NCBI RefSeq assembly: GCF_006345805.1
Contig: NC_042998.1
Coordinates: forward strand, 195,176,001 to 195,240,000
Source of the DNA: Octopus sinensis
Lineage: Eukaryota
Direction: 5' to 3'
DNA: 64,000 nt
Shown here piece by piece: positions 21,196 through 46,419 of this stretch (positions within the stretch are counted from its first letter, which is position 1; every line of letters begins with the position of its first letter). A model generated the notes under the pieces. The model worked only from the letters and a program-made list of their open reading frames with translations. It ran no database searches and was not told the origin of the DNA. The position numbers and the translations under genes are program-made.

Positions 21196-21398
21196 CAATT
21201 GCAGCGTGGAAGGTGTTTATAAGCCATTTAAGAAACACACAAAAACCGTTAGATGCAGCACAAAGTTTTGTCAGTGAACAGGTCGCGGTTTCAAAGCGAC
21301 GAAAATATTTTGACAAATTAAATTTAAATGTTGAAGTGAATCTAACGGTTTTTGTGTCTTTCTTAAATGGCTTATAAACACCTTCCACGCTGTAATTG
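21196..21398. mobile_element. Palindromic Penelope-derived mini-element (59-bp inverted arms, hammerhead in loop)
   Basis: Arms 21196-21254 and 21340-21398 are reverse complements with about 2 mismatches, and the loop contains a hammerhead motif. Confidence 0.7.
21267..21317 (+). ncRNA. Minimal type I hammerhead ribozyme motif with G3-C8 core variant
   Basis: TTTGTCA-GTGAACA-G-GTCGC-ggtttcaaa-GCGAC-GAAA-ATAT-TT-TGACAAA: 7-bp stem I, 5-bp stem II, palindromic stem III (AATATT). Confidence 0.7.
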
Positions 21399-21689
21399 GA
21401 GAAAATGACAGCAAAAATAACTTTAAATGTAAAAGAAATAAAATATGCTTCTGGATTGCATTTACGGAAATTACATGTCGACTCGGTGCAGGGAAACGTA
21501 CGTGGCTTATATATTGGATGCAATATTTACAGATGAGTTTCATATGGAATATAAAATTTTGTACCAAAGTCCACTTTGAAAGCGCAAGGTCACAGTGCTA
21601 AGTTTTATTTTTAATTGTTACCCGTATTCTTGACGGAATACCAAAACTGAAAAATTTGCAAATTACCAGATTTTTGTAACAAAAGGAAC

Positions 21690-21820
21690 AAATTGCATTT
21701 TCCTGGATTTCCAAAAGCATTCGATTAGGTATAAACACTTAGACCCATGTATTTAAAAATACGAGTATAGTAGAGTGTTTAGATTTTAAAGTGGATTGGT
21801 GATCTTCTCAGTGACAAAAA
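21690..21820 (+). mobile_element. Highly decayed CR1/L2-type RT fragment
   Basis: A CIFLDFxKAFD-like remnant at about 21693-21728 and LKWIGDLLSD at about 21786. Confidence 0.45.
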
Positions 21821-22496
21821 AAATACGGAAGATCTTCCTGCAGGATTGCAGTGTGTAAAATGCCTTGAAGGTTTTTCAGAAGTGAAATACGTCTCGTGCT
21901 GTTGTCGTGGTTAATTGCTGAGGTTAGCAAGAACGACAGTGTAACATGCTAGAGTGATGCGCGAGACAGGAAATTTTCTCCATTCATTACGTGACCAAAC
22001 AGGTCTAACAGAGGTTAAATTAAGTCTAGCATGAGCGCAGAGAGCATGTGAACATCTGACGTGCATCGAGTCGGGAAAAGAGTTGAGCTGGCTCAGACGC
22101 GTTGAAAAACAAAGCAGTAGAGGCATAATAGAGGTGCGTGTGTATATGTGTGTGCAAGGCTGAGGCAGTAATGCTAGTGCATTGACTACAAATACGATGT
22201 ACAGAGTTGAATATGCCAATGATTAAGGCAGTGCTAGTGTATGGGGTAGTAAATGCTTTGAGATGTGCAAGAGCAAAAGTGTGGCATGCTGGCGTGTTGT
22301 AAGGGACAAACAGCTTTCTCTATGTATGTGCGACCGACCTAGGGTCTTACAGAGAGGAGAAGAGAAAAGTGTTGTTGAACTGTTAAGTGAAATTTGGCGA
22401 TCGAGGATCGAATCCACACTGTGCCTGTATGATCCATTATACATACATATATACATACATACATACATACATACATGCATACATTATATATGTATT

Positions 22497-24330
22497 ACAC
22501 ACACACACACACACACACACCACACACACACACACACACACACACACACACAGTCAACAGATAAGATCGAGAGAATCTCAATATAAAAACACTTTGTAGC
22601 GCTCAAATAATTTGAACCTACACACACACACATGCACACACACACACACACACACACACACACACACACACACACACACACACCACACAGTCAACAGATA
22701 AGATCGAGAGATCTCAATATAAAAACACTTTGTAGCGCTCAAATAATTTGAACCTACACACACCACATGCCACACACACACACACACACACACACACACA
22801 CACACACACACACACACACACACACACACACACAGTCAACAGATAAGATCGAGAGAATCTCAATATAAAAACACTTTGTAGCGCTCAAATAATTTGAACC
22901 TACACACACACACATGCACACACACACGCACACACACACACACACACACACACACACACACAGTCAACAGATAAGATCGAGAGAATCTCAAATAAAAAAC
23001 ACTTTGTAGCGCTCAAATAATTTGAACCTACCACACACACATGCACACACACGCACACACACACAACACACACACACACACACACAGTCAACAGATAAGA
23101 TCGAGAGAATCTCAATATAAAAACACTTTGTAGCGCTCAAATAATTTGAACCTACACACACACACATGCACACACACACACACACACACACACACACACA
23201 CACACCACAGTCAACAGATAAGATCGGAGAATCCAATATACAAACACTTTGTAGCGCTCAAATAATTTGACCTACACACACACACATGCACACACACACG
23301 CACACACCCACCCACACACACACACCCACACACACACACACAACACACACACCAGTCAACAGATAAGATCGAGAGAATCTCAATATAAAAACACTTTGTA
23401 GCGCTCAAATAATTTGAACCTACACACACACACATGCACACACACACGCACACACACACACACACACACACACACACACACACACACACACACACACACA
23501 CACACAGTCAACAGATAAGATCGAGAGAATCTCAATATAAAAACACTTTGTAGCGCTCAAATAATTTGAACCTACACACACACACATGCACACACACACG
23601 CACACCACACACACACACACACACACACACACACACACACAGTCAACAGATAAGATCGAGAGATCTCAATATAAAAACACTTTGTAGCGCTCACATAATT
23701 GAACCTACACACACACACATGCACACACACACGCACACACACACACACACACACACACACACACACACACACACAGTCAACAGATAAGATCGAGAGAATC
23801 TCAATATAAAAACACTTTGTAGCGCTCAAATAATTTGAACCTACACACACACACATGCACACCCACACGCACACCACACCACACACACACACACACACAC
23901 ACACACACACAGTCAACGATAAGATCGAGAGAATCTCAATATAAAAACACTTGTAGCGCTCAAATAATTGAACCTACACACACACACATGCACACACACC
24001 CGCACACACACACACCACCACCACACACACACAACACACACAGTCAACAGATAAGATCGAGAGAATCTCAATATAAAAACACTTTGTAGCGCTCAAATAA
24101 TTTGAACCTACACACACACACATGCACACACCACGCACACACACACACACACACACACACACACCCACACACACACACAGTCAACAGATAAGATCGAGAG
24201 AATCTCAATATAAAAAACACTTTGTGCGCTCAAATAATTTGAACCTACACACACACACATGCACACACACACGCACACACACACAAACACAACACACACA
24301 CACACACACACACACACACACACACACACG
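22497..24330. repeat. Minisatellite of 13 conserved ~70-bp blocks separated by variable (CA)n
   Basis: The block cagtcaacagataagatcgagagaatctcaatataaaaacactttgtagcgctcaaataatttgaaccta starts at about 22551, 22688, 22833, 22961, 23085, 23208, 23353, 23505, 23640, 23774, 23910, 24041 and 24178. Confidence 0.95.
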
Positions 24331-44222: not shown

Positions 44223-44224
44223 AA

Positions 44225-45760
44225 TTCCTCCGTCTACGCAGGCCCTACAATGACAACCATGACTTTGAGACTCAGTCTCAACTCATGGCTCGCCACTTCA
44301 TCCTATCCCCTCACCACTATCCACACCGCCCTTGCCAGAGTATGTTCCATGGACCGTGCATCCGCTCTTTCCCATCGCACCTGCCCCGCCGTCATCTGTC
44401 TTCCGTTTCCCCTCACCTACCACCCTACCTCTCCAACGCACCATTCTCCGAGCCTACCGGCGACTCCAGTCCGATCCCTTCACTACGCACATCTTCCTTA
44501 ACTGACCTCTTCCCTCCTTCAAGCGAGCCCACAACCTACGAGACTTCTTGGTCCACAGCTTCTTCCCTAACCCAACCTCCCAACCCGGTTCGTTCTCCTG
44601 CTCCCACCCACGCTGTCGCACTTGCCTTTACCTCTCCAACACCACCCTCCTCACAGGCACCCATCATCGACCCTGTCATATCACTGACTCCTTCACTTGC
44701 ACTTCTATGAACGTCATCTACTGCATCTCCAGCTCTCTTTGTCCTTCTCTATACATCGGTCAAACGGGACGCCGCTTGGCCGACCAGTTCGCGGAACACT
44801 GAGACATCCGTCTCGGCAACGACACCTCAGTCTCGCGCCATTTCCGCTCTACCGGTCACTCTTTACAACATCTGTTTGTGTTCTGATTGTCCTTGCACAG
44901 GGGCAATCTGGAATCCCGTCTTCGCCATGAGCAAGGATTAATCTTCTCTCTTCGCTCCTATAGTCCACATGGGCTCAACTCTCCTTCCTCTTCATCTAAC
45001 CCTCTTCCTCTCTTCCTCTCACACCGACTTCCTCCCACCGACCTCTCCTCTCTTACTCTGACACCTACTTCCTCTCTTCACTCCTACCCACCTTCTCTCC
45101 TTCCACCCTCTCCCTTCATCGTCACCCCTCCCTCGTTACCCCACTCTACACATTCCAACCCCACCATCTCTATAGATCCCATTCCACCCCATCTCATCCC
45201 TTAGACCTCACTCTTGCTTCCCCCACTCTCGCCTCCCCAACACCCCAACACCCCAACACCCCCACACTACACACACTACCACACCACACCACCGCCCCAT
45301 ACACCACTACCACACCATACACCACGATACCACACCATACCACATCACACCACCACACTACACACTAGCACTGACCACTTCCCGGCACCTACACCATCAT
45401 CCACACACCTACACATGCACACACGCACACGTCAATGCCACCAGACCCCTTCCACAGACACATACGCTCTCACATACACACGCATGCGCACCTTCCTTTT
45501 GGGATCACCGCTACTTTTGGGATCTCCTCTTCTTCCAAGCTCTCCTGTGTGACCCCTCTGTCCGGCATTCTCAGTGATAGATCGTAAGCCGCTAAACCTT
45601 TTTCTATGTTCTCTCCCTGTTTATTTTTTGTGTTTGTTTCTGTCGAAAAGCATAGGCTCGAAACGTAAAGGACTTTCTCACTTCCCGAGCGTTAAACTTA
45701 TACATCTGTTTATTGTTTACACACCGTCTTCGCCTTTTGTTTTTCTTGTAAATTCTCACT
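44225..45760 (+). mobile_element. Penelope-like element 3' part (Neptune-type Cys linker, GIY-YIG endonuclease, pLTR)
   Basis: PLTYHP, NLRDFLVHS, CSHPRCRTC, FTCTSMNVIYCISSSLCPSLYIGQTGRRLADQFAEH and EQGLIFSLRSYSPHGLN, followed by a pyrimidine-rich tract and a pLTR-like segment. Confidence 0.9.
45637..45670 (+). ncRNA. Degenerate minimal hammerhead motif in pLTR
   Basis: TTT-CTGTCGA-A-AAGC-atag-GCTC-GAAA-CG-TA-AAG, with an A6U change and a mismatch at the base of stem II. Confidence 0.5.
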
Positions 45761-45866
45761 ATATATATATATATATAGTTAATCCAAACATGAAAACACA
45801 ACAACGCGAGGACGTGGAACAAATATAGTATTATTGGACGCTCAGCAAGGAAGGGAAGACGGAGGG

Positions 45867-45899
45867 TTTAACGTTTCGAGCGGAGCTCTTCATCAGAAA
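45867..45899 (-). ncRNA. Canonical-core minimal type I hammerhead ribozyme motif (Penelope type)
   Basis: Minus strand TTT-CTGATGA-A-GAGC-tcc-GCTC-GAAA-CG-TT-AAA, with palindromic stem III AACGTT. Confidence 0.85.
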
Positions 45900-46419
45900 T
45901 ATAGGAGAAGGAAAGATCCAGAGAAGGGAAGACAGAGGAAAAAAATCGCCAACGGTACACACGAGGTCACATATATATATATATGTACAAATCGATTAGG
46001 GCTCTTCATCATTATCATATATATATATATATATATATTATATATTATATATATATATATATATATATATATATATATATATATATATATAGTTAATCCA
46101 CACAAGAAAACACAAAAAAAAAAAAAAAAACAAATAATACTATATTTGTTCCACGTCCTCGCGTTGTTGTGTTTTTTTTTTTGCGCTTTCTTGTTTGGAT
46201 TAACTTTTATATATATATATATATAGTAATACTAAGCATAAGGGTTTAGCAACGAGTTGCCTTACCACATACCGAATTTAGAAATAGCAGTCAAAGGGTT
46301 ATAGCTATTTCTTCTACTAAAAGGGATCTCAGTAAAAACCAACCATTGGAAGGCAACACAAACAGGTAAGAGAGAATGAATTGACTGCAATCTATCATAC
46401 ATTTTTTAGTTATCCACGG

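Follow-up and report, generated by a model that had tools for sequence, protein, structure and literature searches.

Hairpin repeats at an Octopus sinensis locus are short ends of Penelope-type families carrying hammerhead-like motifs

Introduction

Four palindromic repeats lie in a 64,000-nucleotide stretch of the Octopus sinensis genome (assembly GCF_006345805.1, contig NC_042998.1, positions 195,176,001 to 195,240,000, forward strand). This stretch, called the window here, belongs to a genome of 2.72 Gb and is rich in microsatellites and repeats. A first-pass annotation had described three of the palindromes as elements with inverted arms around a hammerhead ribozyme, and had suggested that they could form a class of hairpin-shaped, self-cleaving, non-autonomous elements mobilised by Penelope enzymes. 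Analysis of their genomic relatives shows that these hairpins derive from four distinct families of Penelope type, of which they form short ends with hammerhead-like motifs, and that they represent no new kind of hairpin element. The observation was mostly right, and the inference of a new class is refuted by inversion breakpoints that differ between copies. The hairpin itself is not the replicating unit. The repeats belong to known kinds of sequence, namely 3' stumps of Penelope-like elements (PLEs) and retrozyme-type units.

How PLEs form head-to-head inversions and tails is the open question that these repeats serve. Thousands of short insertions whose two ends are fixed constitute a natural data set that makes two-primer and fold-back models testable.

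The palindromes of the window

Inverted repeats occur at about the positions first given for the three elements and the fourth palindrome, whereas the limits of elements 1, 2 and 3 needed correction. The arms are listed with their length in nucleotides (nt) and, for the first three, their match:

21196-21268/21326-21398: arms of element 1, 73 nt, 89%
33477-33566/33686-33775: arms of element 2, 90 nt, 88%
45785-45835/46133-46183: inverted match of element 3, 51 nt, 94%
25439-25483/25979-26023: outer arms of palindrome 4, 45 nt
25880-25914/25945-25979: inner arms of palindrome 4, 35 nt

A hammerhead descriptor (type I, palindromic stem III) was compared between the window and 12 dinucleotide shuffles of it. 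The hammerheads claimed for the loops of elements 1–3 were matched with 0 core mismatches in element 3 (45896, minus strand), 1 in element 2 (33576) and 2 in element 1 (21274); the shuffles gave 0, 0 and 6 matches at 0, 1 and 2 mismatches, respectively. Because two-mismatch matches arise in shuffles and also elsewhere in the window (16609 and 62641), the element 1 motif alone is not above chance, and its support comes from conservation within its family. Rfam reported no hammerhead family among the matches listed for the window (150 of 191), only microsatellite-driven miRNA-type matches. Other palindromes of the window (11899-11994, 25114-25229, 55119-55791 and 56254-56512) have no descriptor match, so that a hairpin shape is not linked to the presence of a hammerhead.

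Family 1: one tail per hairpin

Element 1 is composed as follows, TSD denoting a target site duplication and pLTR the terminal repeat (pseudo-long terminal repeat) of a PLE:

21124..21135, plus strand: left copy of a 12-nt TSD; the right copy, 21393-21404, overlaps the element's last bases
21137..21257, minus strand: inverted, 5'-truncated family 1 copy with a tail of ~58 nt (reference 98-218)
21251..21398, plus strand: family 1 pLTR copy without tail (reference 12-159), its 5' end at the family's common stop
21267..21317, plus strand: type I minimal hammerhead-like motif with a G3-C8 swapped core (21274-21280), palindromic stem III and predicted cut after 21310

The window copy thus spans 21137-21398 within its 12-nt TSD. 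The arms first described are real, but the element starts at ~21137 rather than 21196 and is asymmetric, with a tail on one arm only.

Relatives were collected with four queries (whole hairpin, loop only, tail only and a motif upstream of the unit), which gave 120 loci and 112 distinct insertions, and were mapped onto one natural copy used as reference. For this and the other families, the sample from each query is its 30 top-ranking loci among 40 candidates scored out of ~900-2500, and is biased to close relatives. The family 1 unit has two 3' ends, one at reference ~160 (the pLTR end) and one at 218, which adds the ~58-nt tail. Copies are joined head-to-head in 69 of the 112 distinct insertions; the share depends on the query, from 30/30 with the whole hairpin, which is biased, to 19/30 with the loop, 20/30 with the tail and 8/30 with the upstream motif. 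The outer ends of the 69 inverted insertions follow a near-absolute one-tail rule: 59 combine one tail with one pLTR end, a single insertion shows the pLTR end on both sides, a tail on both sides never occurs, and in nine an end is damaged (P~5e-17 against independent ends).

The inner junctions of the 59 hairpins, in contrast to their outer ends, are variable. They fall into 44 clusters at +/-3 nt, the largest holding six, and the junction of the window copy recurs in one other copy. Either arm may be the longer one and either may carry the tail. Scoring was confined to the 41 hairpins outside microsatellites, which set aside 18 others; TSDs of at least 10 matched nt surround 37 of the 41, whereas pairing flanks wrongly gave such a match in 4 of 300 cases. 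The TSDs range from 10 to 16 nt. Varied junctions, together with a TSD around the whole hairpin, imply that every family 1 hairpin stems from a single insertion and has a centre of its own. Breakpoints differing from copy to copy had been named beforehand as the outcome that would count against a class with fixed arms and loop, and this is the pattern found.

Parent element and RNA of family 1

Upstream of the family 1 unit lies a (CATA)n tract, and beyond it broken frames with reverse transcriptase (RT) motifs, a Cys-rich linker and, C-terminally, a GIY-YIG endonuclease. The upstream motif had 326 matches. In Pfam searches GIY-YIG was detected at E=1.2e-4 (above the cut-off) and 7.9e-4 (below it), and RVT_1 at E=0.22 in one fragment only; Atlas placed the frames in GIY-YIG clusters at 0.96, the family being given on 31-34% of members. 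The GIY-YIG piece compared with longer proteins had no homolog at E<=0.001. Since the unit runs upstream into RT and GIY-YIG frames, family 1 is the 3' end (pLTR plus tail) of a PLE bearing open reading frames (ORFs) and an endonuclease (EN+). Long insertions, among them a 2-kb ORF-bearing one (L281), show the one-tail inversion too. Beside the upstream region, two loci (L276 and L277) contain a ~540-nt tandem array of 98% identity.

Many family 1 copies stop at reference 12-15. The match ends at position 12 in 22 of them, and in 15 of these the next base outward is a G instead of the element's own C (P~6e-6 against flank composition); most of these 22 ends are hairpin junctions, where short homology could supply the G as well. 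Untemplated G in L1 has been ascribed to copying of the mRNA cap (PMC9341517), and the family 1 template may likewise have been a capped, uncleaved RNA. Copies do not accumulate with their 5' ends at the predicted cut, and those few that end at reference 70-74 are mostly accounted for by stem I homology. At loci L244-L273 the common 5' stop, which lies ~14 nt before stem I, directly follows a sequence resembling a branch point and a 3' splice acceptor; this sequence may be the end of a PLE intron or merely an initiator-like start. The intron reading was set aside, as the 24 nt before the stop hold no common upstream exon.

RNA-seq data of a related organism were sampled from three runs, at about 6% of each run. 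On element 1 fell 1552, 1156 and 1172 reads, respectively, pointing both ways, of which 82-84% continue into unlike sequence. This fits passengers in host transcripts and has no bearing on cleavage. In these ordinary libraries, a weak test, no pile-up of starts or ends was listed at 21310.

Families 2, 3 and 4

Element 2 comprises:

33477..33572, minus strand: inverted, truncated family 2 copy without tail
33568..33815, plus strand: truncated family 2 unit with tail, the tail being the start of the next ~340-nt unit
33476-33483 and 33816-33823: candidate 8-nt TSD
33571..33615, plus strand: type I hammerhead-like motif with a U3.G8 core, weakened stem II, 10-nt palindromic stem III and predicted cut after 33610

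Here too the arms are real, but the element extends to ~33815 and is asymmetric, with one tail. Family 2 is an ORF-less unit of ~340 nt repeated head-to-tail with a period of ~340-355 nt (L004, L007/L018, L008, L016 and L028). Its copies are ~80% identical and, even with the hairpin as query, only 8 of 30 loci are inverted (two of them one local duplication), with differing junctions.

Palindrome 4 belongs to family 4:

25357..25948, minus strand: tail-bearing truncated copy, split by a Helitron-type insert and truncated before the family hammerhead
25945..26015, plus strand: inverted partner arm without tail
25483..25879, plus strand: Helitron-type insert with TC start, 3' hairpin and CTTG end, between A and T

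Family 4 is likewise an ORF-less head-to-tail unit, with a period of ~465 nt (L188, L192 and L208). Its hammerhead combines a canonical core with a stem II base of 4 bp, a stem III of 5 bp that is nearly palindromic and a stem I of 6 bp. The window copy ends ~60 nt short of it. The CGAAAC in the loop, once taken for a hammerhead trace, lies on the opposite strand, ~60 nt downstream of the real hammerhead; being no part of the family 4 motif, it was rejected as a remnant. The one-tail rule holds in 18 of 19 loci of the hairpin query, and all 15 simple hairpins found with the tail query have a tail-less partner arm; the remaining loci of that query are 10 solo, 2 tandem and 3 complex, and 4 of its 30 repeat earlier loci. 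Simple 5' ends lie near the predicted cut in only 1 of 40 cases, with no pile-up.

Family 3 and the PLE beside it occupy the following positions:

44216..44973, plus strand: frameshifted, 5'-truncated PLE ORF remnant (RT thumb, Cys linker, GIY-YIG)
45561..45760, plus strand: 3' pLTR of the PLE remnant, with an A6U minimal-hammerhead variant at 45637-45670
45778..45970, minus strand: solo family 3 unit of ~200 nt with homology to PLE pLTRs, inside a (TA)n tract
45867..45899, minus strand: minimal hammerhead, canonical core in the window copy
46091..46205: separate tiny family 3 hairpin of 115 nt (3' 69 nt plus inverted 38 nt)

Element 3 had been drawn as one hairpin, but its right 'arm' is half of the separate mini-hairpin, which has a different 3' length variant. 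The two likely arrived independently. Family 3 is a unit of ~204 nt in (TA)n, solo at 27 of 30 loci, tandem at one and with an inverted partner at two, the window included; its query spanned both unit ends, so that the fixed ends are partly selected. Families 1, 3 and 4 and the pLTR of the full-length PLE often adjoin in the same (TA)n tracts (L209 ~1630-1800 sense, L196, L088 and L167). Shared tracts of this kind make chance inverted neighbours such as element 3 expected. Between TA runs at 45985-46017 there is also a 33-nt piece whose minus strand resembles the core and stem II start of another minimal hammerhead.

The elements had been called unrelated in sequence, whereas element 3 is homologous to the PLE pLTR immediately to its left; family 3 shares 65% identity over 162 nt with the pLTR of a full-length pLTR-ORF-pLTR element. 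The ORF remnant at 44216-44973 is 73-80% identical in amino acids to a full-length PLE of the Octopus sinensis genome. Its three frames gave no Pfam match in the window, and its identity therefore rests on these relatives, in which RVT_1 (E=2.7e-8) and GIY-YIG (E=0.03, below the cut-off; Atlas 0.97) were found. Three of them (L177, L178 and L183) have two direct pLTRs, each with a hammerhead motif, so that this PLE family shows the order pLTR, ORF with RT and GIY-YIG, pLTR, with a hammerhead in the pLTR. It is very abundant (11,898 first-look candidates for 44216-45760). The ORF-bearing PLEs described here may be Neptune-like, judging by their Cys linker (PMC8557442) and by sequence motifs.

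Loci without inversion number 11/30 (loop-only query) and 10/30 (tail-only query) in family 1, 22/30 in family 2, 28/30 in family 3 and 19/29 (loop query) in family 4. The earlier suggestion of Penelope-type, hammerhead-bearing sequences with inverted arms as a PLE feature is borne out, and families 2–4, in which no ORF was seen, likely borrow PLE enzymes. Loss of the hammerhead core from the families had been the other outcome named as adverse, and all four keep the core or a core variant.

Hammerhead cores and their possible activity

A minimal type I hammerhead (core CUGANGA/GAAA/UH, stems I and II, palindromic stem III) occurs in canonical form in family 4 and in element 3 of the window. 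In family 4 the canonical core accounts for 22 of 49 loose-pattern matches, most others being off-target. The window's element 3 is a rare form, since 26 of 32 family 3 cores have U4C (25 of one form). All 27 pLTR cores scored in the full-length PLE family have A6U. Among 35 family 2 cores U3-A8 is commonest (12 exact), alongside C3-G8 (4 exact) and mismatched forms. In family 1 the 3-8 pair is swapped to G3-C8 in 94 of 117 cores, and the stretch from GAAA to the cut is kept in 101 of 117 copies. The stems of the motifs fold, with dimers favoured by 3-13 kcal/mol, and cleavage by these hammerheads, if any, is predicted to depend on dimerisation or on assistance from a protein. G3-C8, U3-A8, U4C and A6U cores would escape standard descriptors.

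Two views of the family 1 motif deserve weighing. It could quite plausibly, if short of probably, be an inactive ribozyme or no ribozyme at all, in which case it would be a relic whose two core changes complement each other by chance. A C3-G8 sister in the same context had 0 matches in the genome, which gives no sign of covariation; the accumulation of 5' ends is found ~55 nt upstream of the predicted cut and not at the cut itself; and the three RNA-seq runs, weak as that test is, have no read-end pile-up there. On the other hand, most copies preserve all the remaining positions of the core, three stems and a palindromic stem III, at the frequencies just given, and the changes hit exactly the 3-8 pair, whose double mutant (C3G/G8C) partly rescues a PLE hammerhead (PMC11167929). 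G3-C8 is an engineered variant in PMC3884650, while U3-A8 is natural, and U4C is weak in vitro yet tolerated in a viroid (PMC3088659). No literature report of a natural G3-C8 core was found; Lünse et al. or supplementary data may already list such cores.

As a tentative alternative, family 1 might possess an active natural G3-C8 hammerhead, and the one-tail rule, which an ORF-bearing PLE has in common with ORF-less retrozyme-type units, might be the genomic trace of priming on both strands from two sites of a capped, uncleaved RNA. If true, this would explain PLE inversions and show that animal retrozymes are inserted by PLE enzymes.

How the hairpins probably arise

The hairpins are, very probably, truncated Penelope-type repeat ends joined head-to-head and built anew at each insertion. 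Each has two fixed outer ends, one at the pLTR end and the other at the pLTR end plus tail, a variable inner junction and a TSD around the whole. By this account a PLE enzyme would nick AT-rich DNA with an 11-13-nt stagger, and element RNA would be copied from two adjacent internal start sites. Each nicked target strand would prime one cDNA, each from a different site, by analogy with an anole PLE in vitro, and the two cDNAs would be linked in head-to-head orientation through short homologies. The mirror arm would be made afresh each time, likely in one event by the Penelope RT/GIY-YIG enzyme, rather than inherited as a unit. Many family 1 copies would be run-off copies of capped, uncleaved RNA starting ~22 nt before the core. 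The inversion step, with strands primed from different sites and cDNAs joined at short homologies, is somewhat more likely than not. In the anole system both target strands are cut and extended in vitro, two internal RT starts delimit the tail, and uncleaved RNA is the main template (PMC11167929).

Several points weigh against this account. No intact ORF was found in family 1, whose four extended loci have only broken frames with truncated 5' ends and lack a 5' pLTR; families 2, 3 and 4 yielded no parent with an ORF. None of 104 family 1 tails runs into an ORF; the tail as the start of the element body is therefore shown only for families 2 and 4. A few family 1 junctions recur, in clusters of 2-6, which we read as short-homology hot spots. 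L242 and L243 are not independent, having their flank in common; they lie 0.4 Mb apart, with a 200-nt flank 95.5% alike and different inner junctions. The TSD of element 3, inside (TA)n, is unscorable, and the samples are biased to close relatives. The two-primer step comes from one in vitro system (PMC11167929), and PMC3846280 proposes self-priming on an antisense template instead.

That proposal leads to the main rival, which leaves the identity of the elements unchanged: the arms would be made by fold-back, with the RT priming itself or switching template to the cDNA it has made or to antisense RNA. We consider it rather unlikely. It agrees with the clustering of junctions at short palindromes and short homologies, with extra rearranged pieces at several junctions (L095, L222 and L230) and with the preference stated in PMC3846280. 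Fold-back alone leaves unexplained, however, the exact halt of the copied arm at the second of the fixed ends and the fact that the tail-bearing arm is the shorter in about half of cases, and both strands are extended in vitro (PMC11167929).

Very improbable is the notion that hairpin-shaped, self-cleaving, non-autonomous elements replicate whole. Fixed outer ends, TSDs flanking the entire hairpin, the frequency of hairpins in family 1 (19/30 and 20/30 loci), the junction that L031 and L032 have in common and the one cluster of six are what such units would give. Against them stand the 44 junction clusters among 59 hairpins, the free placement of long arm and tail, the many hairpins without a hammerhead (palindrome 4 of the window and most family 4 hairpins) or with one in both arms, and the predominance of uninverted copies in families 2 and 3. 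Miniature inverted-repeat transposable elements (MITEs) of cut-and-paste DNA transposons, with a hammerhead likeness by chance or as a relic, would account for inverted arms, TSDs and the chance-level motif of element 1, but this reading is refuted by arm asymmetry (one tail) and by the continuation of family 1 into RT/GIY-YIG frames, besides abundant solo and tandem copies and a TSD length varying from 10 to 16 nt.

Relation to known systems

An inverted pLTR, a one-sided tail and a TSD are already published PLE anatomy. PLE insertions with an inverted, 5'-truncated copy and a tail at one end are described in PMC8557442, the same anatomy with 8-10-nt TSDs in PMC3846280, and inverted repeats that differ from copy to copy in PMC2377424. 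Related literature includes PMC6765202 and PMC13282606. The octopus insertions resemble these EN+ PLEs in head-to-head inversion of variable length, tail at one end, short TSD, microsatellite or AT-rich targets and heavy 5' truncation. They differ in that most are only 150-450 nt and so look like pure palindromes, in tails of 45-85 nt as against 30-40 published, and in that the one-tail rule has been counted here (59 of 60 scorable family 1 hairpins). Such stumps can plausibly be mislabelled as MITEs. A literature report of PLE-derived MITE-like palindromes was not found in a survey of main texts.

Minimal hammerheads in PLE pLTRs are mostly single, with pairs on opposite strands and a U3-A8 variant (PMC4209133). 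Those described here are likewise of type I with a stem III that is short or palindromic, come mostly as single motifs dispersed with truncated PLEs, also form opposite-strand pairs 100-700 nt apart and include the U3-A8 variant; fixed G3-C8 in family 1, mostly U4C in family 3 and A6U in full-length PLEs set them apart. The anole PLE PAc, a Poseidon element (PMC11167929), is similar in its two 3' boundaries that delimit a tail, its AT-rich targets and uncleaved RNA as the likely template, and belongs to a different clade and host.

Families 2 and 4 share with animal non-LTR (non-long terminal repeat) retrozymes (PMC7229834; bioRxiv 10.64898/2026.07.22.740005) the ORF-less head-to-tail repeat, one type I hammerhead per unit, and monomers and dimers. 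The period of family 4, ~465 nt, exceeds the ~300-nt (220-390 nt) monomers described. The link between retrozymes and PLEs has been argued from co-occurrence and homology alone (bioRxiv 10.64898/2026.07.22.740005), whereas families 2 and 4 themselves bear the marks of PLEs (a pair of fixed 3' ends, a tail on one side only and inversion) and thus tie retrozyme-type units to PLE insertion. These marks, the family-wide G3-C8 core of family 1 and the counted one-tail rule are the points of interest of the locus.

Other features of the window

Helitrons are recognised by a TC start, a 3' hairpin, a CTRR end, insertion between A and T and the lack of a TSD. The Helitron said to split palindrome 4 is confirmed, by anatomy only, as the insert at 25483-25879, and a second Helitron-type copy (31170-31567) ends in CTAG between A and T. 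Broken RT fragments of LINE (long interspersed nuclear element) type lie at 17478-18632 (plus strand) and 42205-44154 (minus strand), with Pfam RVT_1 at E=1.3e-18 for 42828-43400. The palindromes at 25114-25229 (98%) and 11899-11994 (94%) are near-perfect with TA repeats at the centre, the former made up of two ends, turned towards each other, of the short repeat that is commonest in the window.

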